A stretch of 64,000 nt of DNA, from contig CM119373.1 in the NCBI GenBank assembly GCA_051294905.1, positions 5,520,001-5,584,000 on the forward strand, given 5' to 3'. The DNA is from Botryllus schlosseri. Its lineage: Eukaryota. The notes beneath the pieces were generated by a model that was not told the DNA's origin, did not search any database, and was given only the letters and a program-made list of their open reading frames with translations. The position numbers and the translations under genes were made by a program. Shown piece by piece: positions 6,041 through 61,069 of this stretch (within the stretch, counting starts at the first letter, position 1; each line of letters begins with the position of its first letter).

Positions 6041-9000
6041 CTAAATCGCGTCTCCATGACAGATGACATTCCTATCAACGATTACGCCACTGGTGGCGTA
6101 CGAATTAGAACTATTGAGAGTGAAAATTACGTCAATTGCGCAATTGCATTGACCGGCTCCGTACAAATGTTCAATTTCAGTTGCGTCCAAAGCTTTATTC
6201 CAAAGTTGAAATCCGGTCATCTCACCAAGGAAGCCATGCGAGCGTTCGGACGATGGGTGATTTTGACCAACAACCAGCACGCCACCTCCTCGTATGCTTT
6301 TCATGCCCGTAAGGTCACGAGTTTTGAGTGTTCCATTAACGTATGACGTAGTCCAAGATGGGTTCATTGAAATGCACATATGAGTTTCATAAATGATTCT
6401 AGGAAGAATGAAAAACATTGGTCGCTGTTCCGGAACTACAACACGCAATGTATTTCCAACCAAATAGACCGTCATGTCGCTATAGCTCTGATTTCCGTTT
6501 ATCCGGTAGCTAAATAGAAAACCATAAACCGGATTGCGATCATGAACCTTCCTCAGCCAAACGCATACAGTAAGTGACGTAATGTTAGGCAATGTATCCG
6601 CGTATTGGACGTAATCCAAATGTCCGGTTCCCGGGAATAGGACTTGAGAGACATTGCATCCTGCAATATTTGCAACAAAATGTTCAAATCGGCTAAATTC
6701 GATTTATTCGTCTAAGTCTTGAAACCAAAATAAATATTATATTTATTTATTTTTCTTCCAAATAATTTCGCTATAACGCCTGCAAGGGAAGGCTGAGGTA
6801 TTGATTGAAATGACGTGTTGTAACAGCTTCTATCTCAAAACGAACTGATGCTGCCGGTGAGAAAGACTAACATAATGGATGTGAACAAAAATTACTTTTA
6901 CGAATGAACACAGGGCAGCAATGTGTTTTAAACGAAATGATATGTTGGATCGATGGCCATGTGTATTAGGGACCACGAGTCCTGCGCATCTGTCAAACGA
7001 CATACATCTCATCACCTGCGACGTTACAATCATTGTCAATAAACCTTTAATTAGTCGTGATCGTATCATTTTGAACCATTTCACATCGAATGGGTTTTGA
7101 TGAAACAAATTGTTTATGCCACCATTGGATATAGATGGCTTTTGGTCTGTTAAACATGAGTAAATTTGTTTCCTGGATATAGTATTGATAAGCTGGAAGT
7201 AGGAATTTTGGACGTTACAAAATTATAAACGCTAATTCAAAATCAGAATTTAATTTCCATCACATATGACTGAAATTACTCCTTCGTTGCAGTTGTAAAG
7301 GTATGTCATGGTAACAAAAAATAAAGAAAAGATGTTGATATCGCAGAAATGATGTCTGCGAACTTTCACGGTGCGCTAACGAGTCGTAACCAGAGTCGCG
7401 AGTCGGATCGTTTTAGCCATTAGAAGTTAGAGTCGCACTTCTCATCCAGTCTCAATTTTGTTACTGAACGAGTTTTGGTACGGATACGGAGTAGCTAGTT
7501 AAAAACTCAACAATTCGTGAATCAGAGCAAAGTCGTGAAGTTCAATTCTGCAGTGTAGGGAGCAGGGTCGGGGTAGCAATTCGAAATCTAACGTGATATC
7601 GGAATCAAGTTACATAGAGATAGATATCTCGAGAATATTAGTGGTTTTAATGGAAGAGACAACATAATTCAATTAGAATGAGATCCGTCAAACTTATCAG
7701 CATCATTATGACCTGAGATCGTAATCCATACTTTTTCCGGGTTTGAGCTTTTTTACTAGAATACCAAATTGCTGCCTAGTTCACAACTCAATCTCCCGAA
7801 CTCAATGTTTGAGGATAATATTTTGTATCACTTCTGGCCTTGTCATACAGTCACTATTTGGATAGCTTACCTGTATGCTCGTAAGCTTTCGAAGTTGTCA
7901 TTGCGTGACTCTTTAATGATGTAGTTTTTGCCACTGTTGTAGTCGTTCTCGTTGTTGTTGTGGGTAATGTTGCTTTTGTTGCTTTTGTTGTGTTTGTTAC
8001 GGGCGTATGTCTTGTTGTTGGTAGTGCAGTTGTTATTGTGCTAGTAGGATTCGCATCTAAATCCCGGATTGTTGTACCCCCTTCTTTATTCGTCACGCGA
8101 GTTTAAACTGACGCTATATTTCCTCCTGCCATTTCAAATACTCTTTCCAGCGCTTGCAAATCCACCGCATCTGCTTAAAATTTTAATCTATTTGAATGAT
8201 TTGATCAATCGATTTTAATCATAATAATAGTATGAGCAATACTCTACGTCCGATCAATAACGGAAAGTTAAGAATTGGTTGAGAAGCAAAAATGAATCAT
8301 TAATATTTATTTAAATTAATCAGGGAGAAATAAACTTAACCAGAAATTAAATATGATTATGTAAGAAACTGACTCACCTGAAATTTCCTGTCAAAAGAAA
8401 ATATAACAACTCACAATACAATTTTAGCGAAAAAGTGAGTATTACCACTTACCACCCCCAATGGGGGTACAAGAAATCGTAACTTACTTCACCACTAGGT
8501 TATATGATTGTGCACAAGGTCAGTTCCGACAAATGGATATGGATGGAGGCAAGATTTCGGGGCCGAACTTGTTAGCCTGATATTCACCCTACGCTATGCT
8601 GGAAATAGGTGCTAAGTGATGTTACTAATGTAGACAACAAGTAAATATATCTTCAATTCTCAAGTTTCTTCAAGTCATTGCTAATTTTTACAAGTCATGT
8701 CACTCGATTTTTAAGGAAAACGAGTAGAGCTAAGTCGAATTTTTATAATACAAGACATTGTAGAAGCAATGAAACCGGATATTACTCAAGCCATTACATT
8801 TGGAAAGAATACTGGCGCTCTTCAGAGGTACTCCTGAGCAACTAGCATAGAAGTGAAAATAATATTGTTTGTCAACAATCGTGTCACCAAACATGACGTC
8901 ACCGCCATGAAATTCAAATATTCGACTATACTTTAGTCCTGTCATTCAGTAAATATAAATAATACCTTCCATGGTGCAAAACTATTGGCAGTATATTCGA

Positions 9001-10443
9001 TATGCCGCTTATAAATAGTATCGATATTACCTAAGATTCGACCTCGACAACTTACTATGGTCATTTGCCTTGTTCCACAGGTAGAAGTTGATACAACGCG
9101 GTCTGTAGAATACTACTCAAATAAGCATTGCTAAATTGAAGAAATCAACGGTATCAAGTAAATTATGTACAATATAATAGGGGTCCAAGAGAGACATCAC
9201 GAAATGGCAGTGAAGTGATTTGTATAACATAACCCCATGAGACTCATTCCTATTACTTTAACGCTGGAGCATACTTTGTTATCCATACTCACAGTATTCA
9301 TTTTATTATTGTAGATACGGAATTTGCTCCATAAAGCGGAAGGTAGATCAATTCCTAACAATTCCTACCTATGATTTGAGTTACTAGCATGACTATACCA
9401 TAGATCAAGCTGTCAAACATACGCCCCGCGGGCCGCATACGGCTTGCCAGACTATTTCATCCGGCCCAGGAAGCACTTTCGAGTAATGAAATATGCTTTT
9501 CTTATTCAGCACATTTCTATCAAAAGTTGATATTTGAATGCGAATGGTCAAACCGATGCATAACGTCTGATGCAAAATATTCACGGCCTCCTTAGAAACC
9601 CGAATGAACCTTAAATAATAATGCAACAAGTCCCACCGTCCGCATTTAGAACCTTGCCTTGCTAGCAAAATATACAAGGAGCGAACCCCACACCACGACT
9701 AAAACAAAGGGAGCATATAAATATATCAACTTATTTCTGCGTCATACGCCGGTTGGCGACACTGTTTCTGCGGTTTATGGCTGTAACTAATCAGTCTCCC
9801 ATCGTAATATTTACAATTTCGTTTTGTGCGACTAAAGTTGTTGCCAGAATAGAGCCCATATTATCCGCAATATAATGTACAATGCATTGGCTTGATAGTT
9901 TATCATTCCCCTGAAAACAAAGGAATGGATTCCGAAGAAAAACTTGGTAATCATTTAACTGATTCGACCCGCCATCAATGAAATGATTTGAATGAGTCCC
10001 GCGATCCAAATTGTGTTTGACACCCCCGACACCAACAGGTTAATTTGAAAGGAAGCACCTTTCAAATATATCCTCTCTCGAGGGAACTTTCACCGCAGTG
10101 CGATTCCATGTAATGAAATTTAGTTGATCAGCTGAATGGAAATCGAGTAACGAATACTCTGACGGTGCGACGATGAAGGATTCCAAATTAACATGTTACA
10201 ATTGGAATTGCGACTGATGATATTATAATGTGAGACGGAAAATGACGATAGGATCAATTGGGTTCTGTCCTATTCCTGTCCATCGGGCGTGATCAGTGAT
10301 AAGAAATTAAACTGTTGGTGTGAAATTATATGCGAATCGTAAGACCATATTAGGCACATAACCTAATATCTATGCAGATCTCACTTACCTCCTAGCCGAA
10401 GTATCAAAAGAGCTAATAACAACTCCGAATGCATGCCTTTCAT
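6041..10443 (-). pseudogene. Pentraxin-domain gene A1 (signal peptide + Thr-rich stalk + PTX) with in-frame nonsense codon
   Basis: Exons 10443-10389 (MKGMHSELLLALLILRLG), 9102-9056, 8387-8378, 8170-7871, 6660-6041. All introns are GT-AG with phases 1,0,1,1. PTX motifs: SLTVCVW, HMCIS, YVNG, GGGVLVVGQ, FQLWNKAL. TAA at 8105-8103 where A2 has GAA. Confidence 0.8.
9406..10028. mobile_element. Old hAT/Charlie-like non-autonomous element in intron 1 of A1 (paralogous copy about 53006-53568)
   Basis: Degenerate TIR caagctgtcaaaca / tgtttgacacccccg with the gcccgcgggcc subterminal motif; no clean TSD. Confidence 0.55.
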
Positions 10444-10506
10444 TTGCAGATTCGAATTGATGGGATAACACGCATCCTTCCAATTTAAAGCGTTCGAATA
10501 TAACGT

Positions 10507-10581
10507 AAGCCTGGATGCCACACGCATGATATTCTCAAAGTTAATTCCGGACGGAAGCCCTCATTTCCTACGATCAATCAT
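10507..10581 (-). promoter_or_regulatory. Conserved upstream blocks shared by A- and B-type pentraxin genes
   Basis: aagcctggatgc, attccgga and tcatttcctacgatca.tcat occur upstream of both A1 and B1 (17524-17600). The first block starts 64 nt from the ATG in both. Confidence 0.55.
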
Positions 10582-10999
10582 AATCTTGCTATGTAATTCG
10601 GAACTATATTAAGGGATATAGTTACTGCGACCTTCATGGATAATTTTCGGGTTGGGATTGAGATGACGTGAATATCAACCACGCACGGTAGATATTAGCA
10701 CGGATTTTTAATAACGGGTTGGAAAGTTGCGGTGATGTGATGCTGTTGATTTTCAGGGGGAATTACCACAATTCAATCCAATGTCACTCTTTCCTAGTCC
10801 CCAAAGACCTTGAGAAAGCGACTTGAGAAAAGCTTGTGTATCCAATGTACACCCAAATCTTTTAACAAATAATTATCCTAGATAAGGGGTTGCCAACCTT
10901 TTTGTTATTCACGGCAGCATTTCGATGAGTTATGTAGCCTGCGGCCGCATTCCAGGACATGGTTCGTAATGAAGAAACTGGACGCCATATACCTATTTT

Positions 11000-11517
11000 T
11001 AGGGCTGGGCAAAATCGAGTACCTGAGTGATTCGATTCTGAATCACGTAATATGCTTCGAGTCGAGTAATCGAATATCACTCATTGTGACGTCATAACAG
11101 AATGGAATACGTCAAAGTTCAAATATGTACCCGTAATGTTTATGCCATCACAGAGGATATAATGCCTGTTATCAATCTCATAAATGATACTTTGGTATTT
11201 TTTCGACCATACCAATTTCATTCCACTTGGTGACAATGTTGTGGGATGATCATGACTTCGGAAATTTGCTACGCCCAGTAACCTTCGTACCTTTGTACTA
11301 TTTTTTTCGTATGCTACGGTACCGCCAATCAAAATTTCAAAGCTTCAACAGTGAAAATTAGTAGCGGAACTATAATTCTCGTTGATAAATTAACTTTTAG
11401 TGGCGAGAACCGTATAATTTCAGTACTCGAAAAAATCATCTTTTACTACTCGACTCGAATCATTAAAATTAATACTCGATTCAGATTCGAGTAGTCGAAT
11501 CATTGTGTCCTGCCCTA
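11000..11517. mobile_element. hAT-type MITE (copy at 54598-55115)
   Basis: TIR tagggctgggca / tgtcctgcccta; 8-bp TSD cctatttt (10992-10999, 11518-11525); tcgagta/tcgaat subterminal repeats. Confidence 0.85.
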
Positions 11518-12404
11518 CCTATTTTACACTGTCCCTGTCCATTTTCGGTGAGCTCCAAACTGATTTCTTTATTCATATCAGCTTTCCATACGAACCAAAA
11601 TCGCTAGTGGTCATGTTATGAAGAGATTCTTGGTTACGTCTTGGTTTAAAATTTTTCAGATTCACGAATTAATTTCGTCGTGAATATTTGTATTTGCACA
11701 TATTCCTTTCAAACATTTATCGTTTCTCAGCTCATGTGATCAGATCCCCCGCGTAGAGTTGATAGAGGGTGGGGGGTGTTTAAAAATACTTTTTTTCCCA
11801 ATTTAATCGGCTTGGTTGTCAAATCGTCCGATTTCCTAAAATAACGTTGCACATCAAATTTGACTCGATTCCAACCACTGGAAGCCGAGGTCAGTCAAAT
11901 TGAAATTTCAGTCATTTTTGAAATAATAGTATTTACGGTGACCAATTTCGTCATACCGACATGACCAAAAATCGTGTTGCATGTATGTCCGAAGAGGCAG
12001 GGATGTCTTTTCGACTTTTTTGAACTTTACAAGGGCCTATGGTGGTGTTTGGATGGAGACATCGCCAGTAAACGAAAAAAAGATATGACACGGATTAGCA
12101 GGAAATTAGTCCACTTCATTGAAATAGACACGGGATAATTTCCCCATAGAGTACTTTACACACCGAAATTACCGACTACGACAAGGAAATGAACTGATAA
12201 TTAGCACGAAAAATACGGTTAAATATATTTCTCAAGTGATAGTCATATCTAGAAGTATTTTCTGTCAGGTCAATTTAGACTTCATGAAATCTTTCCCATT
12301 TATGCAGGGCATTCCGATGTCTCTCTGCCCACTGCCTTACTGCCTTTGTCAATTGCCTATGCCTCCAATCCCCACACACTTCAGCTGGTCAAGAAAGAGT
12401 TGCG

Positions 12405-12670
12405 AGATGGTGCGATGATATATTCTTCAGATGTCACGCCCATGGGTTGCGAGTAAGAGTATGACCGAGCTCGATTCTTAAATACCTACACATATGTAGT
12501 TTATCTAAGCTCCTCCTCGCAATCTGATCCACGTGAAAGGTGTCTTACAAAAGCCGAGAACAAAAGTGGACCGTGTTATCAGTGAGAATAATAATAATCG
12601 GGAAAACCATGCATGAATCACACTATACATTATCAGTTTCGTGTAATGCAGTACCACAACCAAAACATCA
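12405..12670 (+). mobile_element. Diverged copy of the tRNA-derived SINE just downstream of gene B1 (copy about 56005-56270)
   Basis: Shares gggttgcg..gaccgag.tcgatt, tttatct..gctcctcctcgc and tacaaaagcc with 5469-5754. Boundaries approximate. Confidence 0.65.
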
Positions 12671-12701
12671 ATTTTTACACCCTTCAATTTAAATCAGCGT
12701 A

Positions 12702-15700
12702 TCAATGACAACGGTAAATCTCGTGTTCAATCACATCAACTTTCACAATAGAATTAGAATCGTGGAAAGTCATAATCGAGTCACGGACGCAATGACATTC
12801 ACCAGCTGCGAATAAACCCTCGATTTCTTTGAGAGATAGCGCTCTATTCCAAACATGAAATCCTTGCATCTCGCCAAAAAAGCCCTGGTAGCGATTTTTG
12901 GTATTTGGTGGTCCCGGATTGGATCCGTTTATTTTCAAATCCTGATCTTGACCGAAAATGAGCACACCACCTCCATTTATTTGTCCGGATCCCTCCTTCG
13001 TATATTGCCGATCTCCTTTTTGCGTACCATTGACGTAAAACATAGCCGAATGGGAATTCAATACGAGGCAAAAATGCGTCGAATGCGTGATTACCGGTAA
13101 ATCGCTTTCAAACGTAGAAGATCCCATTTCGGAATTCACAACCAGACTTGCCGAGTATAGGGAGACCGTTGCGGCGTTGCAGCCTTTCGAACCTTCGGCG
13201 CAGTAGCTCATGAATGTACCTTTCACGGGGTGCTCATGATCTGGAGATCGAAGCCACATGCATGCAGTCAGTGACGTCATGCGTGGTAGAGTGCCACGAT
13301 ATTGAACGTAATCAAGATGATCTTTCTCCGGAAATGTGAATTGAGAGATAGAGCATCCTGAAATATCAATGGTACATTTCTATTACAGGAATGCGTGCCC
13401 TAGTTTAACTATTAGTGATGTGGGTGTAAATTGCTCCTTTTATACGCTGAACGAAGTTATAAGGTATATGTAAGCTAAATATTTAAGCTTAGATAGGCCA
13501 CCACAGCGAGAACAGTTGAATATGAGAATGAGAATGTTTAACGATTTATAGTTCGCTGCTTTTCCTAAGTTGATCAGTTGATCACGGTAAAAGTTTGCAA
13601 TGTGTCAGGGAGGGTCATTATTTACTAGGAGGCGTAACTGTTGTTGGTTTGTACAAAATTGTAAATTATAATTCTTAGGCTACATGTTACATGTTCGCTT
13701 TACGATACTGCAAATGCTTCAATGACGGTGAGGCTGATAACGGCAGAAGATTGCATATTTTTGAGATCTTTACTCCGCCTTTAGAGATAATGATCAGGTG
13801 ACGGAAAGAGCGTATAAAATTAACATGTACCATTGTACCTTTTACTATTCTAAGATACTCGAAAATAGATATTTTGACAATGTGATAAACGGCTCACCGC
13901 CTCTGTCGCTACAGTCCGGATCAACCAGTCGAGATAAATTGGGTGAGATGACTGGATGTGACGTGACCTATATAAGGTATTTACAATGTATCTTGGTTAT
14001 GAATGTGTTTTCGATATGCTGCAAAGAATTGTTATTTACACAATCCTCCTAGTATAAATATGGGAATGGTTGGGGAACTACCTGCTTATACCTTATGATC
14101 CACACTTCTGGTCCAATACTTATTCCTCTAGTCTCGCTAATGTTGCTTCACTGCATTCACGGCGATACGACACCGTTTAGGCATGGTGAGGCAACTTAAT
14201 TCGACCATCTGCCGACCCTCAGATCGCGGCAGGAAAACACAAGTGCTGGCGTGTGCAGTAGGCCCTATGTCCAGGCTATCCTCAAAAGCTCATGTGCGGT
14301 TGTTAACGTTAAGTCTCGGGGCTTAGCCCAACAGAGTAATCTTTGTTTTCCGCCAAGTCACGTGAATAGTCATTACATGAAGAACATTTAGACAAGCACA
14401 TTTCATTTCATGATAGCTGGTTATAGTACTTTGATCGGTGATACGACTCACCCATTATTAGCTGAGTTGAAGAGTTAAACACTGCCGAATAAAAAACACA
14501 GAGTAAATGTAGGTATTGCAGATTGCCTCGGTGCATACACGGATTATAGCGTCATCAGATTATGGCAGGGCCGGCCAACTCGTGGCCCGCGAGGAGGTTT
14601 TGAGTGGCCCGCGAGGAGATTTTCGATATTAGGTACATTATCAAAAATGGATTGCCCAGATTGTGAACTTGCAAGGCCAGCCAAAAATTAGATTAGCCTG
14701 TCCGCAACACTTGTGTTGATGACTAAAATATCAGTTCCGACGCATTGGCAGATCCATGGGCCGGTCACAATTTTGGTAGATCTTCGTATATTACAACAGG
14801 GTAGACGGTTTTGCCGTAGATTTATCTAAAGTAAAATTTTCTTCGCGCTTGGCGCAATATGAAGTCACTCGATTTCTTGCTTTTAATACTGTTACGTAGC
14901 CTATTCCCTCCTGAAGATGGAAAAACGCCCAATGTACCAGATTCAGTCTACAACTATATTCGATGTACGAGAGAAAGTATCGTCCAACATGCGACGTTGC
15001 GTTTGCGCTCGCAGAAAGACAGTCAACGATGAAACCTAGGCACAAAATGTTTGACGCAAGTTGGCCGAAGTTTTCGGTATCGATATGTCCAGACGCCGAG
15101 CAGTCATGTCCTTGCAAACGGAGCCCAGCGATTAACAGCAGACCCGCAATCTACCGAAGTAACAATATTATTGATCCATGTACTTTGAAATTTTTTCGCG
15201 CGCGGCGCGGCTAGTGGCCCGCGCAATGTTTCGACAATAGTATGTGGCCCTTTGGCCGAAAAGGTTAGCCACCCCTGGATTATGGCAACCGGCGTACTCT
15301 GATTACACAGCGCATTTGTTCGTTAAAAGGTAAATACGGTATTTTAACTTTTCTGATAATCACTACTGCCACTGCTAGACGTCATAATGAGCGATATTCG
15401 AATGCCCATAATCGATTCGAAACCATACGATTTAAATACTCGATTTTGCTCAATCCAATGTTACAATTTTATATCAATCTGCTCTTAGCTTTTGGTTACA
15501 CATCAGCAGTTCGATAAAGGCAGTAACATACACTACCCTATACTTGTATTTTGATATAATTCGGTAGTATTCACACTATAACCTTTTGGGACTGCAGCCG
15601 CGGGTGGTATCGACTTTGCTGCTATAGTTTTGGTTGATGAAGAGATGAGTGAGCGACTGTCGTTTTCCTTTATGGTAGTTTCAATAGCAATGATATTTTC

Positions 15701-17460
15701 AGCTTCCCTTCCGAGTGTTCTCTCCAGTGCCTGCAAACCAGCCGCGTCTGTAGATCACAGAACTTTAGTTGAGATAAAATATGGTAGCCACGGATTGAGG
15801 TGGATAACGCGATTCAAATGTGGTGGTCGCCCGAAAAATACTTTACTCTGACCTTGTTACAGCACGCAATTAGATTTGCGCTTGTGATTTCATAATATCC
15901 TAGCCGTCTTCATCGCGCACAAGATACGACATGCAGGACATTTATGTAAACGTCAAATGCCCCATAAGTCACGCAACAAGGAGAAATAATCTTCAACCCG
16001 AAAGTAATGTCGACAAGGTATCATATTGACTCACTTGAAATATCCTGTCAAAACAATAGATACGAAGATCGAATGTCATTATCGCTATAAAGAAACCAAA
16101 GCTGAGCAAATGCTGATATGGTAAATTATTTACACTCTTTTAAGTCAATATATAATAAATGCATCGTAATAAACTCCCTTATCAACCGTTATGATTTGAT
16201 ATTCCCGACTTACTATTGTGATTTCCCTTTGCCCACAAGTAGAAGTTGATCGAGTGCGGTCTAAAGAATGTGATTAAAATGTTGATTAGATTTTGCTTTG
16301 GCGACAACAAATAATTAGCTGGGTATTTATACATAATTCAATTTGCAGAGTCATAGTGATCATGGTCGGCTCCGTTCGGTTAACGTATGAACAAGTCTTA
16401 GCGCTTGAGGCTGATCGGTCAGACGTTATTACCAGGGTTGTTATGTCTCGAGTCATGTTTCGACACGAGTCGCATTATTTCGTTGACTGTAATTGACTCG
16501 AGTAATTTTTGCTGGCAAAATGAGTAGTGTATTGACTCGACTGGTGCTCAAGTCATTGCATATAGTCCGACCAAGTCATCTGACATGACAATTTCTAAAT
16601 GGCTTATTCAAGACTCATATAGCAGGACCAACAATTGAAAAATAGGCTCAGAAACTGTATATTTTATCTGAATGATTATACAATGTATAATATAAATGCT
16701 TAGAGTGGAAGAAATGAGAAAATTTTGTTATTACACAAACGTTTCACAGAAATGAGAAGAGTCAGGCTTGAACTCGCTATAAAAAGTACACAATAAAACT
16801 TGGACTCGAACTCGAGTCTGAACACTAAGACTCGGACTCGACTCGCTGCTGCCTGACTTGGACTAGGTCTTGACTCGGTGCTAAATTGAAAATGACACGA
16901 CTTGACTCAATTCAAAACTATGACAGTCAAATTGACTTGTGACTTGATTAAAACCCTGATGGGCACATAATTCGCATCAGAGAGAATTTCATAAAAGCCT
17001 TGAGCTATGGTCTATATGCCGGTAGACGCAGAGTAAGCAACGAACGTACACGGGTTGCGACGTAAGGTGAACATAAATGGCGAAACCACGTTTTATCAAA
17101 ACAACATCAACAATAGTGACGTGAAGTAATCATAGGAATGCGCGGACATGAACGAATTACATTTAAAGAGTGTATCCGTCGCGAGACGCGACACTCGTTT
17201 CTATATGTCCATCGGCATCACGGCATCTCTTCTACTTGTTATATTGACTCGCATATAAAGAAGGCAATATGAATAAATTCCTTCTGTACTACTGAAGCTC
17301 CGAAGCGACAATCCGGCGTGGCTCGTTAACCACACGGCCCGTCTCATCAAGTGCGATGCCACAAACTTCTTTTTACCAAATATGTCACACAAACTTATTA
17401 TTTACCTCCGAGATGGAGCATGAAACATGCGCACAACGCTACCACTTTAAAGTCTGTCAT
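12702..17460 (-). CDS. Secreted pentraxin-domain protein B1 (about 323 aa; signal peptide, Ser/Thr-rich linker, PTX)
   Basis: Exons 17460-17406 (MTDFKVVALCACFMLHLG), 16260-16214, 16044-16035, 15747-15544, 13357-12702; open after splicing. PTX motifs SLTACMW, HFCLV, FYVNG, GGGVLIFGQDQD, QGFFGEM, HVWNRAL. The exon-4 donor (A|gtatag) is weak and was placed by alignment to A and C. Confidence 0.85.
14566..15277. mobile_element. hAT/Charlie-like MITE in last intron of B1 (copy at 58170-58882)
   Basis: TIR cagggccggccaac / gttagccacccctg; 8-bp TSD gattatgg (14558-14565, 15278-15285). Confidence 0.9.
16433..16958. mobile_element. Old MITE of the gactcgagtc/gacttgactc-repeat family in intron 1 of B1
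   Basis: Ends cagggtt / aaccctg; internal gactcg/gacttg repeats resemble 45972-46944; no TSD retained. Confidence 0.6.
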
Positions 17461-17897
17461 TGACCGATTTGAGCACACAAGATAACTTGCAACTTTACAA
17501 TTTATTGCATTCTGATGGCATACAAGCCTGGATGCACCACTAATGGTACTAAAGTAACGTTTATTCCGGAAGAAAGCGATCATTTCCTACGATCAGTCAT
17601 TGCATAGGCTACTTGACTGACGATCATATTTACGGAGGTAACCACAGCGACCTGCAGCCGCTTGATTCCTAACATGATGATTCCCATTCTGTAAGTGAAA
17701 TGGTTACTGCGACACTGTACTTGAATTCGCCGTTTCAAGGTCGACAATCGAGGCAATCAATGGCACCTTAATTCAATACTTGATGGCTTTATACATACCG
17801 TAGTATTAAAGGTTCGTCTATAAGCTCCTCCTCGCCATCCGCTTCGCGTAAGATATATCTTACAAAGCCTGGAATAAACGTAGGGCATCCTTTAAGT

Positions 17898-18435
17898 CAG
17901 TGGTTCGAAACCGGGGGGAATCACCACTGATAGGGAATTCAATGGATTATGGTGGAGAATAGAGGCATTAGTTAAAAAGTATATGCAGGATAGCCTAATC
18001 ATGGGGACACCTGCGCGATGTCCTTTACCAGTTAACTGCTCTGGAATGTATGTATCGAAAATTATAATTAAAAGTGAGCCTTAGAGAACACCTAAATGTC
18101 CTCCTTTTGGGGTATCTGTCCTCCTTTTGTCTGAAAAGGATTTAAATTCCACGACAACTGCGACTACGACGCGGCGAAAATCAGAGTTCTGTGAAAAATC
18201 CGGAGCCGAGTCAAAGTAATTACGTTTTATTAAGTCAACATAATACTATCAGTCGAAACAATTTCAAAATCACCAGTTTTTTTTAGCTTCCAGAATTTAT
18301 ATAAAGTCTCCTCTTTTTAGATTTCAAAATATGGTATAACCCTACTTAAAGGGTATATAGGAGAGGGCAGTGGGGAATGAAGACTCTGAATAAATCTGAA
18401 GTAGGGAATGAAGACAATAAGGTTGGGAACCACTG
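17898..18435. mobile_element. hAT MITE inserted into a SINE copy (SINE pieces about 17800-17897 and 18436-18530); copy at 61507-62044
   Basis: TIR cagtggttc.aaacc / ggttgggaaccactg; TSD ctttaagt (17890-17897, 18436-18443). Flanks match the SINE body (gctcctcctcgcc; aatatcagcctgg). Confidence 0.85.
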
Positions 18436-19306
18436 CTTTAAGTCGACAGATCAGGAATCACCGAATGAATATCAGCCTGGAGTAACATTTCATTCATGTC
18501 GAATCACCGTGATTACAACCACCACCACAATAATAAAAACAACTTTTTGTTTTAATATTTCTTCCGCGACGTCTTTCTTCCTATCATCAAACATTGAACT
18601 CAGAGGCAATGTTCATAGTAGCAGCACAGAGGACGAGCCAATATGTTGATACAGGTGTTTTGACAGATATATGACCCTACTCCCAAATTGCGCATAAATA
18701 ACTTCAACATGCTTCAATAACAATCCTACAACAAAACTTCTATGGCTACACTGGATACGTATGTTCCATTGCAAACCAAAATAAAAACATGATTTTCAAA
18801 ATTTTCACTGCCGTCATAGACAGGATTCGGCCAATAGAGAGATGCGTGCAAACTAAGGTCGTAAAATATTTTTATTCATCAATGTCATCATTATAATGGT
18901 GTTAAGAGTTCCCACGCTTTATTGGCCGAATGACGTTATTATTCTCATGATATCGCTGTCTGATGCATGGTTGAATGAATGTCAAAAGCTCCTAAAACAC
19001 TGAACCAATCAAACATCTGACGTACAGCTAAATGGCGTTAGACTCTAGTTTCAAAACCAGATTATTAGGAACTGAATGTTGCATAATACATAATGTATTT
19101 TCGGTTTGTAGATGTACCAATCATTTTGGTATATTTTATTGCAGTACAGCTCTTCGAAAGATCCGCAAAATAATTATTTGAAATAAGAAATAGCATTTTC
19201 ATCAATCGTGTTCGGGAACATCTATTTGTAAAAGGTGCAAAAACTCCACAACTTCAATAATCAACATCAAACTAGGGTAATTAATAACGTCCAAATTTAT
19301 CTATAT

Positions 19307-19790
19307 CAGGGGTGGCCAACCTTTTCCGCCAAAGGGTCACATGAGATTTACGAACCATTGCGCCGGCAGCTTGAATGTTGATAAACTTTTGATAGTCGTC
19401 CGATAGAAACGAACCGAATGAATTCGATCAATAAATATGTTGCTTGCATATATTTGGGGTAGCCTCTGTATACCTTCGGGATCATTTTGCAAGGACATAA
19501 TTATTAGGCGTTAAGACATAGCAATATCGAAGGTTTCGATTAACACGCCTCTATCATTTTGCGCAAATGTTTCATCGCCGACAATCTCGCTGCGAGCGCA
19601 CAAGCGATGTCGCATGTTGGACGGCAGACTATCTCCTAATTACGAAAATAGTTAGACTCAATTCTGTAAATAACATGTATTTACAATATACAGGAGGGGT
19701 TCCAATACTAAATGCAAGAAATCGAGTGACAATAAATCATGCGAAGTGCGGAGAAAAATTTCAAGTCAAATATATCTGATACGAAATATT
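19307..19790. mobile_element. Truncated MITE of the same family as 14566-15277, opposite orientation
   Basis: Starts caggggtggccaaccttttccgccaaaggg; body is reverse-complement similar to about 14800-15277. Confidence 0.65.
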
Positions 19791-19810
19791 CTAGTTGATG
19801 GTCGTATAAT

Positions 19811-19868
19811 CAGGGCTGTGGAGTCGGAGTTGGAGTCCGTGGTTATATTTACTGACTCCACAGCCCTG
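19811..19868. mobile_element. 58-bp miniature inverted-repeat element (copy about 63412-63469)
   Basis: cagggctgtggagtc ... gactccacagccctg perfect 15-bp TIR around a short ggagtc-repeat spacer; no TSD visible. Confidence 0.6.
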
Positions 19869-35457: not shown

Positions 35458-35494
35458 AACTCTTGAAAAGAGGCACCCGAAAAGTCTTCGAGTT
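35458..35494 (+). ncRNA. Putative minimal type I hammerhead ribozyme motif, U3-A8 core variant, in the Penelope pLTR
   Basis: aactc-TTGAAAA-gaggcaccc-GAAA-agtct-TC-gagtt: helix I aactc/gagtt, core UUGAAAA, short helix II, GAAA, vestigial helix III, UC cleavage site. Confidence 0.6.
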
Positions 35495-48698: not shown

Positions 48699-51600
48699 TC
48701 AGCCTCCATGACAGATGACATTCCTATCAACGATTACGCCACTGGTGGCGTACGAATTAGAACTATTGAGAGTGAAAATTGCGTCATCTGCGCAATTGCA
48801 TTGACCGGCTCCGTACAAATGTTCAATTTCCGTTGCGTCCAAAGCTTTATTCCAAAGTTGAAATCCGGTCATCTCACCAAGGAAGCCATGCGAGCGTTCG
48901 GACGATGGGTGATTTTGACCAACAACCAGCACGCCACCTCCTCGTATGCTTTTCATGCCCGTAAGGTCACGAGTTGTGAGTGTTCCATTAACGTATGACG
49001 TAGTCCAAGATTGGCTCATTGAAATGCACATATGAGTTTCATAAATGATTTCAGGTAGAATTAAAAACATTGGTCGCTGTCCCGGGACTGCCACACGCAA
49101 TGTCCTTCCAACCAAATAGATCGTCATGTCGCTATAGCTATGATGTCTGTTTATCCGGTAGCTAACTAGGAAACCATAAACCGGATTGCGATCATGGACC
49201 TTCCTCAGCCAAACGCATACAGTAAGTGACGTAATGTTAGGCAATGTATCTGCGTATTGGACGTAATCCAAATGTCCGGTTCTCGGGAATAGGATTTGAG
49301 AAACGTTGCATCCTGGAATATTTGCAACATATTATTCGAATCGGCTATATTTAGATTCTATCATCATAGTCTTAACACCGAAATAAATAGTAAATTATTA
49401 TCATTATTTTCAGCCAAATAATGTCACTACAATGTCTGCAAAGGGATACTATGGTGGGGATTGATTGAATTCACGTGTTTAACGTCGCAATGTTATTTCC
49501 TTCTCGCACTTCGTTCTCGAAACAAGCTGATGTTTTCAGAGAAACTGTAATTATTGACGTGACAAATGAGTGCTTTTACGAATAAACACAGAGAAGAAAA
49601 GTGTTTGAAACGTAATGATATGTTGTATCGATTGCCAAGTTTATCAGGGCCATGGGTCCGTCACTTTTGTCAAACGACAGGCATCTCATCAACGGCGACG
49701 ATACAATCATTGACAATAAACCTTAAATTCATCGCGATCGCGGCATTTTGACCCACTTCTCTTCAAATTGGTTTTGATGAAACAATTTGTCTATGCCATT
49801 GTTAGATAAATATGGCTTTTGTTTTGTTAAACATGAGTAAATTCGTTTCCAGGATTTCGTATTGCTAAGCTGGTAGTAGAATTTTGGACGGGACAAAATA
49901 CAAACATTAATTCAAAATGAGATTTTACCCACATATGGCTGACAGTAGGCCTACTCCTTCGTTGCAGCTGTAAAGGTATGTCATTATAACGAAAAATACA
50001 GTAACTATGTTCATATCGCAGAAATGATGACTGCAAACTTTTATGTTGCACCAACGCGTCGTAGCCAGAGTAGCGAGTCGGATCATTTTAGTCATTAAAA
50101 GTTAGAGTCGCACTTTTCATCGAGTCTCAATTTTCTTGCGGTACAAGACTGGGTGCGGATAGGGAGTAGCTACTTGAAAACTCACTAATTCGTGAGTCAG
50201 AGTAGAGTCGTGAATTTCAAATCTGCGGTGTCGGGAGCAGAGTCGGGAAAACGATTTGAAATCTAAGAGGATATCGGATCAAGTCACATACAAATAGGCC
50301 TATATATCTCTAGAATATTAGTGGTGTTAATGAAAGAACCGGCATAATTGAATCAGAATGAGATCTGTCAAGCTCATCAGCATCATTATGACCTGAGATC
50401 GTAATTCGGAATTTTCCTGGGTTTGAGCTCTTTTACTAGGATACCAAACCAACTCAATCTCCCGAACTCAACGGTTGAGGAAAATCTAATTTAGCTTTGC
50501 TAGTCTTGTCAGACAGTCACTATTTGGATGGCTTACCTGTAAGCTTGTAAGCTTTCGAAGTTGTCGCTGCGTGACTTTTTAATACCGTCGTTGTTGCCAC
50601 TGTAATAATCGTCATCGTCGTTGCTGTTGGTAATGTTGATGCTTTTGTTGTGGGTGTGGTTGTTACGGATGTATGTCTTGTTGTTGGTAGTGCAGTTGTT
50701 ATTGTGCTAGTAGGATTCGCATCTAAATCCCGGACTGTTGTATCCCCTTCTCTATTCGTCACGCGAGTTTCAACTGACGCTATATTTCCTCCTGCCATTT
50801 CAAATACTCTTTCCAGCGCTTGCAAATCCACCGCATCTGCTTAGAAATATTCTCTATATGAATGATTTGAACAATCGATTCTAATCATAATAATAGCATG
50901 AGCAATACTGTACTTCCAATCAATAATGAAAAGTTATGAATTGATCGAGGAGAAGAAATGAATGATTATTATTTATTTAAATATATTAAGAAGAAATCAA
51001 TTTACCCAGAAATTAAAGATGATTATGTAGGAAACTGACTTACCTAAAATTTCCTGTCAAAAGAAAAGATAACAACTGACAATACAATTTAGGCGAAAAA
51101 GTGAGTATTACCAGTTACTACCACCAATGGGGATACGAGAAATCGTAATATACTTCACCACTAGGTTATATGAGTGTGCACGCGGGTCAGTTCCGACATA
51201 TGGAATATGCATGAAGGCAAGATTTCGGGGCCGAACTTGTTAGCCTGATATTCACCCTATCCTATGCTGAAAATAGGTGCTAAGTGATGTTACTAATATA
51301 GACAACAAGTAAATATATCTTAAATTCTCAAGTTTTTTCAAGTCATTGTATATTTTTGCAAGTCCTGTCACTTGATTTTTAAGTAAAACGAGTAGAGCTA
51401 AGTCGAATGTTTATAACACAAGACATTATAGAATCGATAAAACCAGATATTACTCAAGCCATTACATTTGGACAGAATACTGGCGCTCTTCAGAGGTACT
51501 CCTAAGCAACTAGCATAGAAGTGAAAATGATATTGTTTGTCAACAATCGTGTCACCAAGCATGACGTCACCGCCATGAAATTCAAATATTCGATTTCATT

Positions 51601-54041
51601 TAGTCCTGTCATTGAGGAAATACAGATAAAACCTTTCATGGTACGGAACTATTTGCAGTATATTCGATATCCAGCTTATAAATAGTATCGATATAACCTA
51701 AGATTCGACCTCGACAACTTACTATGGTCATTTGCATTGTTCCACAGGTAGAAGTTGATACAACGCGGTCTGTAGAATATTACTCAAATAAGCATTGCTA
51801 AACTGAAGAATTCTACGGTATCAAGAAAATTATGTATAATATAATAGGGGTCCAAGAGAGACATCACGAAATGGCAGTGAAGTGATTTGTATAACACAGT
51901 GTCGGGATGACTCGAGTCATGACTTGACTCGAGTCAGATTCGAGTCACCTTTTTCGAATGACTTGACTTGACTAGAGTCACTTTGCTAAAATGACTTGAC
52001 TTGACTTGACTCGACGCATCAAAAATGTGGATTGACTCGTGACTCGGAGTTATATTCACGATTCAATTTCAAGTCATCAACTAATCGGTGTCGATACAAA
52101 TCATTGTATCTTGCATACGGTCGTATTGTTCGCGATACGCCCGTGTAACCCGTGAGAGCGACTAATTCAATGATCGGGCGTTTCACTGTGCCTCCATTGT
52201 TCTTTCACAAATAAATTGACCGCAAACTAAGTCATCGAAACTTATAGCGTACGATGTCTAAACTAGTATAGTAAAGTAATTTATTAGAAAAATGAATATA
52301 TCTGTTTTCTGTTTTTACCTTTACCAGACCTCTTGTTTTATTGAAATTGAATTCGAATATGGTAATTTTTAAATGGGTAATGTATTGCATCTTATCAATT
52401 CGTTTGTCTATTCTCTGTTTTGGCTGGAAACTATAAACTGAGGCTATGTAATTACTTACGTAGCTTAACAGTTCAACGTATATGTGAGCGATACAGCGCC
52501 TTCTTGCGTGTATATTTAACCGTATATTCGTTCATTGGCTCAGAATCAATGACCACTCAATCTGTATTTAAGACAGCTAGCAAAATGCAATGACGTAACC
52601 ATGCCTCATACTTCGAAAAGGCAACTTGACTCGAATTGTTACTTGACTCGTGATTTGACTTGAGTTGACTCGACTTGACTCGAGTCACCTCCAAAAATCG
52701 AGTGACTTGACTTGACTCGATTCACCTTCGAAAATCGATTGACTTGACTTGACTCGAGTCAAAATGTGCAATGACTCGAAATGATTCGTGACTCGAAGGT
52801 AGTGATTTGATCCCAACACTGGTATAACATAGCCCCATGAGACTCATTCCTATTACTTCAACGCTGGAGCATACTTTGTTATCCATACTCACAGTATTCA
52901 TTTTATTATTGTGGATACGGATTTCGCTCCATAAAGCGAAATGTAGATCAATTCCTAACAATTCCTACCTATGAGTTGAGTTAATAGCATGACTATACCA
53001 TAGATCGGGCTGTCAAACATACACCCCGCGGGCCGCATATGGCTTGCCAGACCATTTCATCCAGCCCGGGAAGCACTTTCGAGTAATGAAATATGCTTTT
53101 CTTATTCAGCACATTTCTATCAAAAGTTGATATTTGAATGCGAATGGTCAAACCGATGCGTAACGTCATATGAAAATATTCACGGCCTCCTTAGAAACCC
53201 GAATGAGCATTAAATAATAATGCCACAAGTCCCACCGTCCGCATTTAGAACCTTGCCTTGCTAGCAAAATATACAAAGAGCCAACCCCACACCACGACTA
53301 AAACAAAGGGAGCATGTAAATATATCAACTTATTTCTGCGTCATACGCCGGTTGGCGACACTGTTTCTGCGGTTTATGGCTGTAACTAATCAGTCTTCCA
53401 TCGTAATATTTACAATTTCGTTTTGTGCGGCTAAAGTTGTTGCCAGAACAGAGCCCATATTATCTGCAATATAATGTACAATGCATGGGCTTGATAGTTT
53501 ATCATTCCCTTGAAAACAAAGGCATGGATTCCGAAGAAAAACTTGGCAATCATTTAACTGGTTCGGACCACCATCAATGAAAAGATTTGAATCAGACCCG
53601 CGATCCAAATTATATTTGACACCCCCAACACCAACAGGTTATTTTGAAATGAAGCACCTTTCAAATAAATCCTCTCTCGAGAGAACTTTCACCGCAGTGC
53701 GATTTCATGAAATGAAATTTAGTTGCTCAGCCGAATAGAGATCGGGTAACGAATACTCTGACAGTGCGACGATGAAAGGATTCCAAACAAACCTCTTACA
53801 ATCGGAATTACGACTGATGATGGTATAATGTGAGACGGATAATGACGATAGGATCAATTGGGTTCTGTCCTATTCCTGTCCAACGGGCGCAGTGATAAGA
53901 AATTAAGCTGTTGGTGTGAACTTATATGCGAATCGTAAGACCATATTAGGCACATATAACCTAATATCTATGCAGATCTCACTTACCTCCTAGCCGAAGT
54001 ATCAAAAGAGCTAATAACAACTCCGAATTCATGCCTTTCAT
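48699..54041 (-). CDS. Secreted pentraxin-domain protein A2 (about 341 aa), intact paralog of A1
   Basis: Exons 54041-53987, 51769-51723, 51053-51044, 50836-50537, 49312-48699; GT-AG, open frame; 300-nt Thr-rich exon. Confidence 0.85.
51897..52821. mobile_element. hAT MITE (same family as 45972-46944) in intron 1 of A2
   Basis: TIR cagtgtcgggat / atcccaacactg; perfect TSD gtataaca (51889-51896, 52822-52829). Empty site with a single gtataaca at 9222-9229 in copy 1. Confidence 0.95.
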
Positions 54042-56302: not shown

Positions 56303-59300
56303 TCAATGACAATGGTAAATTACGTGTTCAATGACATCAACTTTCACAATAGAATTAGATTCGTTGAAAGTCATAGTCGAATCAGGGACGCAGTGACATT
56401 CACCAACTGCGTATAACCGTCTTATTTTATTGAGGGATAGTTCTCTATTCCAGACATGAAATCCTTGCATCTCACCAAAAAAGCCCTGGTGGCGATTTTT
56501 GGTATTTGGTGGTCCCGGACTTGATCCGTTTATTTTCGAATCTTGATCTTGACCGAAAATGAGCACACCGCCTCCATTTATTTGTCCGGATCCCTCCTTC
56601 GTATATTGCCGATCTCCTTTTTGCGTACCATTGACGTAAAACATAGCCGAATGGGAATTCAATACGAGGCAAAAATGCGTCGAATACGTGATTACCGGTA
56701 AATCGCTTTCAAACGTAGTAGATCCCATTTCGGAGTTCACAACCAGACTTGCCGAGTATAGGGAGACCGTTGCGGCGTTGCAGCCTTTCGAACCTTCGGC
56801 GCAGTAGCTCATGAATGTACCTTTCACGGGGTGCTCATGATCTGGAGATCGAAGCCACATGCATGCAGTCAGTGACGTCATGCGTGGTAGAGTGCCACGA
56901 TATTGAACGTAATCAAGATGATCTTTCTCCGGAAATGTGAATTGAGAGATAGAGCATCCTGAAATATCAATGGTACATTTCTATTACAGGAATGCGTGCC
57001 CCAGTTTAACTATTAGTGAGGTGGGTGTAAATTGCCCCTTTTATACGCTGAACGAAGTTATAAGGTATATGTAAGCTGAATATTTAAGCTTAGATAGGCC
57101 ACCACAGCTAAAACAGTTGAATATGAGAATGAGAATGTTTACCGATTTATAGTTCGCTGCTTTTCCTAAGTTGATCAGTTGATCACGGTAAAAGTTCGCA
57201 ATGTGTCAGGGAGGGTCATTATTTACTTGAAACGAGAAACGTGACGAGGAGGCGTAACTGTTGTTGGTTTGTACAAAATTGTAAATTATAATTCTTAGGT
57301 ACATGTTACATGTTCGCTTTACGATACTGCAAATGCTTTAATGACGGTGAGGCTGATAACGGCAGAAGATTGCATATTTTTGAGATCCTTACTCCGCCTT
57401 TAGAGATAATGATCATGTGACGGAAAGAGCGTATAAAATTAACATGTACCTTTTACAATTCTAAGATACTCGAAAATAGATATTTTGACAATGTGATAAA
57501 CGGCTCACCGCCTCTGTCGCTACAGTCCGGATCAACCAGTCGAGATAAATTGGGTGAAATGACTGGATGTGACGTGACCTATATTAGGTATTTAAAATGT
57601 ATCTTGGTTATGAATGTGTTTTCGATATGCTGCAAAGAATTGTTATTTACACAATCCTCCTAGTATAAATATGGCAATGGTTGGGGAGCTACCTGCTTAT
57701 ACCTTATGATCCACACTTCTGGTCCAATACTATTCCTCTAGTCACGCTAATGTTGCGTCACTGCTTTCACGGTGATACGACACCATTTAAGCATGGTGAG
57801 GTAACGTAATTCGACCATCTGCCGACCCTCAAATCGCGGCAGGAAAGCACAAGTGCTGGCGTGTGCAGTATGTCCAGGCTATCCTCAAAAGCTCATGTAT
57901 GGTTGTTAACGTTAAGTCTCGGGGCTCAGCCCAACAAAGTCATCTTTGTTTTCCGCCAAGTCACATGAATAGTCATTACATGAAGAACATTTAGACAAGC
58001 ACATTTCTATTTCATGATAGCTGGCTATAGTACTTTGATCGGTGATACGACTCACCCATTATTAGCTGAGTTGAAGAGTTAAACACTGCCGAATAAAAAA
58101 CACAGAGTAAATTTAGGTATTGCAGATTGCCTCGGTGCAAACACGGATTATAGCGTCATTAGATTATGGCAGGGCTGGCCAACTCGTGGCCCGCGAGGAG
58201 GTTTTGAGTGGCCCGCGAGGTGATTTTCGATATTAGGTACATTATCAAAAATGGATTGCCCAGATTGTGAACTTGCAAGGCCAGCCAAAAAATAGATTAA
58301 CCTGTCCGCAACACTTGTGTTGATGACTAAAATATCAGTTCCGACGCATTGGCAGATCCATGGGCCGGTCACAATTTTGGTAGATCTTCGTATATTACAA
58401 CAAGGTAGACGGTTTTGCCGTAGATTTATCTAAAGTAAAATTTTCTTCACGCTTGGCGCAATATGAAGTCACTCGATTTCTTGCTTTTAATACTGTTACG
58501 TAGCCTATCCCCTCCTGAAGATGGAAAAACGCCCAATGTACCAGATTCAGTCTACAACTATATTCGTAATTACGAGAGAAAGTATCGTCCAACATTCGAC
58601 GTTGCGTTTGCGCTCGCAGAAAGACAGTCCACGATGAAACCTAGGCACAAAATGTTAGACGCAAGTTGGCCGAAGTTTTCGGTATCGATATGTCCAGACG
58701 CCGAGCAGTCATGTCATTGCAAACGGAGCCCAGCGATTAACAGCAGACCCGCAATCTACCCAAGTAACAATATTATTGATCCATGTACTTTGAAATTTTT
58801 TCGCGCGCGGCGCGGCTAGTGGCCCGCACAATGTTTCGACAATAGTATGTGGCCCTTTGGCCGAAAAGGTTGGCCACCCCTGGATTATGGCAACCGGGGT
58901 ACTCTGAGTACACAGCGCATTTGTTCGTTAAAAGGTAAATACGGTATTTTAACTTTTCTGATAATCACTACTGCCACTGCTAGACGTCATAATGAGCGAT
59001 ATTCGAATGCCCATAATCGATTCGGAACCATACGATTTAAATGCTCGATTTTGCTCAATCCAATGTTACAATTTTATATCAATCTGCTCTTAGCTTTTGG
59101 TTACACATCAGCAGTTCGATAAAGGCAGTAACATACACTACCCTATACTTGTATTTTGATATAATTCGGTAGTATTCACACTATAACCTTTTGGGACTGC
59201 AGCCGCGGGTGGTATCGACTTTGCTGCTATAGTTTTGGTTGATGAAGAGATGAGTGAGCGACTGTCGTTTTCCTTTATGGTAGTTTCAATAGCAATGATA

Positions 59301-61069
59301 TTTTCAGCTTCCCTTCCGAGTGTTCTCTCCAGTGCCTGCAAACCAGCCGCGTCTGTAGATCACAGAACTTTAGTTGAGATAAAATATGGTAGCCACGGAT
59401 TGAGGTGGATAACGCGATTCAAATGTGGTGGTCGCCCGAAAAATACTTTACTCTGACCTTGTTACAGCACGCAATTAGATTTGCGCTTGTGATTTCATAA
59501 TATCCTAGCCGTCTTCATCGCGCACAAGATACGACATGCAGGACATTTATGTAAACGTCAAATGCCCCATAAGTCACGCAACAAGGAGAAATAATCTTCA
59601 ACCCGAAAGTAATGTCGACAAGGTATCATATTGACTCACTTGAAATATCCTGTCAAAACAATAGATACGAAGATCGAATGTCATTATCGCTATGAAGAAA
59701 CCAAAGCTGAGCAAATGCTGATATGGTAAATTATTTACACTCTTTTAAGTCAATATATAATAAATGTATCGTAATAAACTCCCTTATCAACCGTTATGAT
59801 TTGATATTCCCGACTTACTATTGTGATTTCCCTTTGCCCACAAGTAGAAGTTGATCGAGTGCGGTCTAAAGAATGTGATTAAAATGTTGATTAGATTTTG
59901 CTTTGGCGACAACAAATAATTAGCTGGGTATTTATACATAATTCAATTTGCAGAGTCATAGTGATCATGGTCGGTTACGTTCGGTTAACGTATGAACAAG
60001 TCTTAGCGCTTGAGGCTGATCGGTCAGACGTTATTACCAGGGTTGTTATGTCTCGAGTCATGTTTCGACACGAGTCGCATTATTTCGTTGACTGTAATTG
60101 ACTCGAGTAATTTTTGCTGGCAAAATGAGTAGTGTATTGACTCGACTGGTGCTCAAGTCATTGCATATAGTCCGACCAAGTCATCTGACATGACAATTTC
60201 TAAATGGCTTATTCAAGACTCATATAGCAGGACCAACAATTGAAAAAAAGGCTCAGAAACTGTATGTTTTATCTGAATGATTATACAATGTATAATATAA
60301 ATGCTTAGAGTGAAAGAAATGAGAAAATTTTGTTATTGCACAAACGTTTCACAGAAATGAGAAGAGTCAGGCTTGAACTCGCTATAAAAAGTACACAATA
60401 AAACTTGGACTCGAACTCGAGTCTGAACACTAAGACTCGGACTCGACTCGCTGCTGCCTGACTTGGACTAGGTCTTGACTCGGTGCTAAATTGAAAATGA
60501 CACGACTTGACTCAATTCAAAACTATGACAGTCAAATTGACTTGTGACTTGATTAAAACCCTGATGGGCACATAATTCGCATCAGAGAGAATTTCATAAA
60601 AGCCTTGCTTGAGCTATGGTCTATATGCCGGTAGACGCAGAGTAAGCAACGAACGTACACGGGTATCGACGTAAGGTGAACATAAATGGCGAAACCACGT
60701 TTTATCAAAACCACATCAACAATAGTGACGTGACGGTAATCATAGGAATGCGCGGACATGAACGAATTACATTTAAAGACTGTATCCGTCGCGAGACGCG
60801 ACACTCGTTTCTATACGTCCATCGGCATCACGGCATCTCTTCTACTTGTTATATTGACTCGCATATAAAGAAGGCAATATGATAAATTCATTATGCACTA
60901 CTGAAGCTCCGAAGCGACAATCCGGCGTGGCTCGTTAACCACACGGCCCTTCTCATCAAGTGCGATGCCACAAACTTCTTTCAACCAAATATGTCACACA
61001 AACTTATTATTTACCTCCGAGATGGAGCATGAAACATGCGCACAACGCTACCACTTTAAAGTCTGTCAT
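56303..61069 (-). CDS. Secreted pentraxin-domain protein B2 (about 323 aa)
   Basis: Exons 61069-61015, 59865-59819, 59649-59640, 59352-59149, 56958-56303; same structure as B1, open frame. Confidence 0.85.

Follow-up and report, generated by a model that had tools for sequence, protein, structure and literature searches.

We analysed a 64,000-nucleotide stretch of the genome of the tunicate Botryllus schlosseri (the window: positions 5520001-5584000 of contig CM119373.1, here called C3), which holds six pentraxin genes. The pentraxin domain of each gene, its head, is encoded by a single exon, and all six exons exceed the Pfam cut-offs for both PF00354 and PF13385, with PF00354 scores of 31-45 bits against a curated cut-off of 25. 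The genes fall into four head types, A (A1, A2), B (B1, B2), C and D, just as an initial annotation of the sequence had proposed: amino-acid identity between pentraxin exons is 91% for A1 and A2, 92% for B1 and B2 and 64% for C and D, and 30-42% when A or B is compared with C.

In every gene model a signal-like exon is followed by a cassette that starts and ends in phase 1, a spacer and one pentraxin exon. Exon phases are compatible in 6/6 genes and the five-exon models are open in five of them, giving predicted proteins of 310-341 residues; no hydrophobic 19-mer above 1.2 follows the signal in these models, and hence no membrane segment. The signal peptide that the initial annotation assigned to all six stands to the extent that the first exon is signal-like in each, as judged by hydrophobicity only. 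Annotation probably misses genes of this kind, given the contrast between a large pentraxin exon and tiny front exons of 10, 47 and 59 nucleotides (nt).

Both A genes lie on the reverse strand. The A1 model runs from a signal-peptide-like exon 1 (10389..10443) through a 47-nt exon 2 that carries the motif STSTCG and passes from phase 1 to 0 (9056..9102), a 10-nt micro-exon passing from phase 0 to 1 (8378..8387) and an exon for a helix and a Thr-rich stalk (7871..8170) to the pentraxin exon (6041..6660). An in-frame TAA at 8105-8103 stops this model at residue 60, which makes A1 a probable pseudogene on its sequence. In A2 the corresponding exons are the signal-peptide-like exon 1 (53987..54041), the STSTCG exon (51723..51769), the micro-exon (51044..51053), an open helix and Thr-rich stalk exon (50537..50836) and the pentraxin exon (48699..49312).

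The B genes, also on the reverse strand, have the same order of parts. B1 comprises exon 1, signal-peptide-like (17406..17460), the STSTCG exon (16214..16260), the micro-exon (16035..16044), a helix and short spacer exon (15583..15747) whose donor is uncertain, at 15583 or 15544, both weak, and the pentraxin exon (12702..13357). A possible extra 30-nt exon, phase 1 to 1, lies at 14452..14481, and among the B copies its acceptor is present in 4/4 and its GTGAG donor in 3/4. B2 comprises exon 1, signal-peptide-like (61015..61069), the STSTCG exon (59819..59865), the micro-exon (59640..59649), the helix and short spacer exon, again with an uncertain donor (59188..59352), and the pentraxin exon (56303..56958). 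A signal-like antisense frame in the B intron (14095-14185) was dropped as a candidate, since a further copy, B3, does not keep it.

C and D are read from the forward strand. The C model consists of a signal-peptide-like exon 1 of 73 nt (26447..26519), the STSTCG exon (28242..28288), the micro-exon (28649..28658), the helix and Thr-rich stalk exon (28823..29077) and the pentraxin exon (32548..33179); a candidate 69-nt exon after exon 1 (26566-26634) is neither supported nor excluded. D starts with a signal-peptide-like exon, likewise of 73 nt (39865..39937), and continues with a 59-nt two-cysteine hairpin exon, phase 1 to 0 (41282..41340), a 79-nt exon for a predicted helix, phase 0 to 1 (41862..41940), an exon for a short Thr/Ser spacer, phase 1 to 1 (43205..43291), and the pentraxin exon (44435..45069).

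These six genes are part of a far larger array. Within the window, the A1-B1 and A2-B2 blocks are duplicates spaced 43 kb apart and 96% identical (9222..19925 on the forward strand against 52822-63526), and 4677-9229 matches 47594-51896 at 86-93%. When 124 kb upstream and 70 kb downstream are read together with the window, a C-D-A-B block is repeated about three times; this extended stretch has A in three copies, B in four, C in two and D in three, with an insertion splitting one of the D copies. Across the 496 Mb of genome searched, the C pentraxin exon finds 108 matches, 48 of them within the 1.8 Mb around the window (C3 4.07-5.85 Mb), and once three split pairs are merged the array comprises at least 45 loci. 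The pentraxin exon is broken in at least 10 of the 55 loci examined, and synonymous divergence (dS) among paralogue pairs ranges from 0.014 to 0.84. A D-type paralogue just outside the window, L008 (C3:5508603-5511630), has its pentraxin exon split by about 2.4 kb and a degenerate hairpin-exon donor.

On a pentraxin tree, 19 sampled members of the array and six unnamed public fragments form one clade (support 98/99) that leaves out ten other pentraxins of the same genome and 13 named proteins, these 13 being all the named proteins sampled and the bootstrap not being fully settled. The array is a real lineage-specific pentraxin subfamily of this tunicate. The birth-and-death evolution proposed by the initial annotation for a lineage-specific family is borne out by tandem duplicates of many ages, pseudogenes and a lineage-restricted clade, over an array that exceeds the window. 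Word-based homologue searches, which left longer and shorter forms unsearched, returned only unnamed subfamily fragments and distant pentraxins; the six related public proteins are all unnamed fragments without the front end, and an ESM Atlas search returned pentraxin clusters only. The same genome has about 20 further pentraxin copies in another array at C5 8.42-8.71 Mb (L062-L075) and smaller groups on C7, C9, C11 and C14, which have a more canonical calcium site, lack the 52/59 cysteine pair described below and form a separate clade.

Front ends and probable cassette exchange

Types A, B and C share a front end made of one unpaired cysteine, an amphipathic helix of 14 residues and a strand. 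The STSTCG exon that the initial annotation had noticed in these types is present in 5/6 genes, always 47 nt long and passing from phase 1 to 0. The LQALER-like helix, which it took to be common to all, is shared by the same five genes but not by D, which has neither STSTCG nor LQALER. Its Thr/Ser-rich stalk likewise holds for part of the set: the stalk is mucin-like in A (99 residues, Thr plus Ser fraction 0.34) and C (84 residues, 0.30), but short in B (a spacer exon of 54-67 residues, 0.20-0.22, with a weak, uncertain donor) and in D (28 residues, 0.29).

The phases of the STSTCG exon (ending in 0) and of the helix exon (beginning in 1) do not match, so the two can be joined only via the 10-nt micro-exon, which has AG/GT borders and bridges them in A, B and C; without it, the reading frame of these types stops at residue 53-66. 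A tight pattern for the micro-exon has eight matches in the genome, all within the array, and its reversed control has none. A looser pattern occurs upstream of 23/54 family members, with a matching helix exon at 22/54, 11 of which were seeds. The D cassette, in which the 59-nt two-cysteine exon is combined with the 79-nt helix exon and the 28-residue spacer, is kept in two upstream paralogues, and the hairpin exon was found before 7/54 family members. Once spliced, the cassette is open in 18/18 paralogues tried.

The helix-strand part of the cassette has no match among PDB sequences (best E 0.66) or in Pfam, where each hit came from just one of 14 members (E 0.03-0.09). A genome search with the helix-strand protein of a single cassette hit five places, all within the array. 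A likeness to small strand-helix-strand oligomer folds was considered and dropped.

Both kinds of front end are phase-1-to-phase-1 units, and their distribution does not follow the pentraxin tree. Among 24 typed genes the cassette label changes five times, with three changes forced by starred branches, and the labels change no fewer times than shuffled ones. The heads of C, which has the micro-exon type, and of D, which has the hairpin type, are sisters (100/100). A single clade of hairpin genes is rejected (approximately unbiased test, p-AU 5e-44; 0.001 without the doubtful L047, whose hairpin exon has decayed splice sites), as is a grouping of A, B and C without D on the head tree (0.0013). 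Conversely, the cassette tree rejects the placing of C with its pentraxin kin (0.003 on protein, 0.0001 on DNA). The C gene itself looks composite, its signal exon resembling those of the hairpin genes D and L045 and its cassette resembling those of A and B. Interleaving of front-end types on the head tree implies swapping, and cassettes therefore appear, on these trees, to have been swapped between paralogues.

Three points temper this conclusion. When D is left out of the head tree, A+B+C is not rejected (p 0.158). Descent from an ancestor that carried the two cassettes, followed by differential loss, is a possible alternative, though no gene carrying both was seen among the 54. Lastly, the links from upstream exons to heads rest on position, not RNA. 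About 24 of the 54 upstream regions have neither cassette within 9.5 kb and stood outside the cassette tests.

The pentraxin head and its pocket

The model of the C head (predicted local distance difference test, pLDDT, 94) is nearest to NPTX1, with a Foldseek template-modelling score of 0.78, and against structure 6ype it gives a Z score of 24.5 and a root-mean-square deviation of 2.6 over 195 aligned residues: a pentraxin beta-sandwich. The A2 model (pLDDT 88.6) has the same strand order, so that type A is still predicted to fold despite its lost loop. The alignment to NPTX1, together with the residue numbering of CRP (C-reactive protein), was used to transfer CRP positions onto 46 intact or near-intact copies. 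The pentraxin cysteine pair and HxC signature are well kept, with the equivalent of Cys32 in 45/46 copies, Cys97 in 45/46 and His95 in 37/46; the D gene of the window is the sole copy without Cys97, with Tyr instead. The xS/TW tail of the pentraxin signature is absent from the heads.

The extra cysteines listed in the initial annotation (N-terminal, CxC and terminal) are present in 6/6 genes but are not specific to the locus, since other pentraxin groups of the genome and Styela proteins have them too. In PTX3 a Cys179-Cys357 staple is described that short pentraxins lack (PMC9388099). Three cysteines of the array align to the PTX3 staple positions, Cys1 (43/46), Cys184 (42/46) and Cys186 (39/46); in the model, the first cysteine falls at PTX3 residue 178-179 and the CxC lies close to Cys357. 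Judged from this alignment, the heads probably contain a staple of this type.

The calcium site departs more strongly from the canonical one. The ligands reported for CRP are Asp60, Asn61, Glu138, Gln139, Asp140, Glu147 and Gln150 (PMC6503050). In 42/46 copies the equivalent of Asp60 is a cysteine, with a partner cysteine seven residues earlier in 41/46, so that a 52/59 cysteine pair stands in place of this calcium ligand. The equivalents of Asn61, Glu138, Asp140 and Gln150 are retained together in 13/46 copies, including all eight B, C and D copies, whose ligands are Asn, Asp in place of Glu, Gln, Asp and Gln. The full seven-ligand CRP set is not present. Type A goes further, having lost the cysteine pair, the GQDQD motif and most of the calcium loop (all three in A1; in A2 the loop is shortened) and retaining no acidic ligand. 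Phosphocholine is reported to contact CRP at Phe66, Thr76 and Glu81 (PMC6503050) and at Leu64 as well (PMC13698038). Because the equivalents of Phe66, Thr76 and Glu81 are unconserved, with 13-16 different residues among the 46 copies, phosphocholine binding is not predicted.

Across all 31 pairs above 60% identity, the ratio of nonsynonymous to synonymous divergence (dN/dS) is 0.23-0.81, which indicates purifying selection on the pentraxin domain. The pocket stands apart. At seven pocket-facing positions (four taken from papers and three others, all picked after the alignment had been seen, which counts against the result) the corresponding ratio of differences (pN/pS) over 16 independent pairs is 1.15, whereas the whole domain gives 0.55 and eight inward neighbours give 0.50; random seven-site sets reach the pocket value in 4/5000 draws and strand-only sets in 0/5000. 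Site models place the fastest sites at or beside the pocket face (58, 65, 69, 76, 81, 83, 85 and 153), together with 113 and 121, and 4/7 pocket sites are among the 13 top sites of 185 (p 0.0005). On these comparisons the pocket face is reliably the fastest-changing part of the head, at about twice the domain average. Since the predicted pocket varies among the copies, the heads are predicted to bind different ligands.

Whether the pocket is under positive selection is a separate question, to which the answer is suggestive only. Model M8 is preferred over M8a with p = 0.007 for 42 sequences and 0.0008 for 34, with an omega class of 1.3-2.0, and M2a over M1a with p 0.031 once near-duplicates are removed (0.17 and 0.009 for halves of the data). 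These runs left out 4/46, 12/46 and, after pruning, 21/46 copies, and the 42-sequence run took in a partial copy, L022, while leaving out one intact copy. Set against them, M8 versus M8a falls to p 0.084 without near-duplicates and to 0.14 and 0.09 for the halves, exposed sites are in any case more variable than buried ones, and the site models were run in our own code with relative branch lengths fixed and may be inflated by recombination. B1 and B2 differ by 0.4-1.2% over the front exons and by 6-7% over most of the pentraxin exon, a pattern that fits conversion inside genes and calls for caution on the selection tests. The front-exon region concerned (15249-17248 against about 58850-60860, with flanks differing by 2-8%) is a possible gene-conversion tract.

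Proposed function of the array and alternative explanations

We consider, with a probability of roughly 60%, that the six genes are tandem-array pentraxins which act as secreted multivalent pattern-recognition proteins. The protein would be secreted, and its flexible, probably O-glycosylated Thr/Ser spacer would keep head and front end apart. The unpaired cysteine, amphipathic helix and strand of A, B and C may join one chain to another or to a partner molecule; in D the two-cysteine hairpin and helix may likewise link or dock chains. The B, C and D heads would bind ligand through calcium on the face that CRP uses, with the site rebuilt around the new disulfide, and the A heads would work without calcium. 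Block duplication would add copies to the repertoire and pseudogenes lose them, as the pocket varies and cassettes are exchanged. An immune role of the array proteins is inferred.

A bolder form of this hypothesis is that the array is a combinatorial, germline-encoded soluble recognition system of at least 45 diversified heads, some calcium-free, on interchangeable phase-compatible cassettes. We regard it as doubtful. If it were true, cassettes that set the oligomer state or the effector partner would be reshuffled in a system discriminating microbes or foreign colonies, in the sister group of the vertebrates.

Several results weigh against a functional repertoire. Two of the six window genes, A1 and D, look damaged. 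Over the bins of the C and D coding exons, depth is zero in 4/4 bulk RNA runs (6-13% read, tissues unspecified), except in the D exon 1 bin, which overlaps a repeat. One single-cell run shows next to nothing on B1 and C, and the predicted junctions are absent among the joints listed. In two contig sets (X1 and X24) introns are covered as DNA would be, and no splice joint is among those listed. With no junction in RNA, all splicing is inferred, and as the tissues of the RNA runs are unspecified, expression of the window genes is neither shown nor excluded.

The alternative that survives best, though itself unlikely, is that the proteins are not microbe sensors but secreted material of a matrix, mucus, the tunic, the gamete surface or a contact or wound barrier. 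Thr/Ser spacers and an unpaired cysteine suit mucus or matrix; the nearest solved heads are neuronal pentraxins rather than CRP, and type A is without a calcium site, as is described for PTX3 (PMC9388099). Between Botrylloides colonies that reject each other, a lectin resembling serum amyloid P (SAP) is reported to occur in fibres (PMC2275902). High copy number, pseudogenes and variation focused on the pocket are nevertheless better explained by recognition of diverse foreign ligands than by a part in structure.

Alternatively, the array could be mainly a duplication product of a repeat-rich region. Many of its copies would then be silent or redundant, and rapid change in the pocket would reflect relaxed constraint rather than new specificities. 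The lack of exon reads, the broken exons in at least 10/55 loci, the stop in A1 and the cysteine loss in D would all follow from this, several of the youngest pairs have dN/dS of 0.7-0.8, and the omega above 1 fades with pruning. We judge it quite improbable, as older pairs have dN/dS values under 1, in many cases significantly so, and the cysteine frame, the splice phases and the 10-nt exon persist in paralogues only 27-50% identical to C. That the upstream exons are not joined as modelled, or that the near-identical blocks are unmerged haplotypes, would be in keeping with the missing junction reads, the weak B donor and the 96% identity of the A1-B1 and A2-B2 blocks, but it is very improbable given that phases fit in 6/6 genes, that the parts follow one another in the same general order in Styela models and that three A and four B copies in tandem are more than two haplotypes can give.

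The window also contains other elements. A LINE-like copy of a retrotransposon without long terminal repeats occupies 167-4372 on the forward strand in several frames, with a first open reading frame that has a Baculo_FP_2nd match, an endonuclease and a reverse transcriptase, and is broken by stops and frameshifts. The element at 34833-35537 has perfect terminal inverted repeats of 100 bp, is missing from the paralogous block upstream and is probably a recent miniature inverted-repeat transposable element; in two RNA runs it draws more reads than any other part of the stretch. A GACTT-rich tandem repeat element of about 1 kb occurs at 45964-46950 and 51889-52827, the copies being 80% alike, and one of them interrupts the first intron of A2. 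The genome also has a cellulose-synthase-like exon above the Pfam cut-off (L021:1291-2175, reverse strand), as suits a tunicate; the nearest named relatives of its pentraxins likewise come from Styela, Halocynthia and Ciona.

Comparison with known pentraxins

The best matches to the array heads in both sequence and fold are NPTX1, NPTX2 and PTX3, at about 20-26% identity. The vertebrate genes for these three are single-copy, as against at least 45 copies here. The label of long pentraxin given by the initial annotation suits the head, which is nearest to these proteins and has the probable staple, but not the front end, from which a long coiled coil is absent. Vertebrate long pentraxins have such a coiled coil (for PTX3, PMC9388099), whereas the array proteins have a 14-residue helix and a disordered Thr/Ser/Pro spacer. 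CRP and SAP have the same fold (Z 21.7-22.5), and several of the calcium ligands are retained in B, C and D of the array; unlike the array genes, CRP, SAP and the zebrafish and Limulus CRP sets have no N-terminal extension. CRP is defined by calcium-dependent binding of phosphocholine and by a cyclic oligomer with subunits of 20-30 kDa (PMC6503050); the chains modelled for the array have 310-341 residues.

Closer parallels come from other tunicates. The initial annotation had named a match of the full architecture to a described family as a ground for refutation, which two Styela clava models partly provide, XP_039249362.1 ('serum amyloid P-component-like') and XP_039271740.1 ('C-reactive protein-like isoform X1'), with a signal, cysteine, helix-like segment, Thr/Ser stalk and a pentraxin domain with CxC and terminal cysteine. 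They fall outside the array clade, lack the 52/59 cysteine pair and have a front helix without detectable match to the array cassette (probability 0.2%); their names are automatic. C-reactive protein c of Halocynthia roretzi (BAF49232.1) and Ciona XP_002121231.2 have an N-terminal extension and the same extra head cysteines, and in the Halocynthia protein the signal is followed by a TCG motif that resembles type B by eye, but both have a short collagen-like stretch and no Thr/Ser stalk and lie outside the array clade. The 52/59 pair pattern occurs in 6/177 fetched proteins, all unnamed, and no fetched protein has the spliced front end; a profile search over representatives was dominated by multi-domain proteins, and 20 sources were looked up. 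No account of a tunicate pentraxin array was found in the literature, supplements and most subscription journals being outside the search; PMC13746493, which lacks the word pentraxin, and PMC9953650, which touches on SVEP1, contribute nothing.

Pentraxins are usually few and conserved. Zebrafish has seven CRP paralogues and Limulus three subunit genes, so that the multigene sets described in PMC6503050 reach seven members, compared with at least 45 here. Pentraxins identified in Ciona and Didemnum may partner C1q (PMC5465252). An array of this size with a fast-changing pocket would be the pentraxin counterpart of the diversified lectin families of invertebrates, and it would offer a panel for how one fold changes its ligand and drops calcium.

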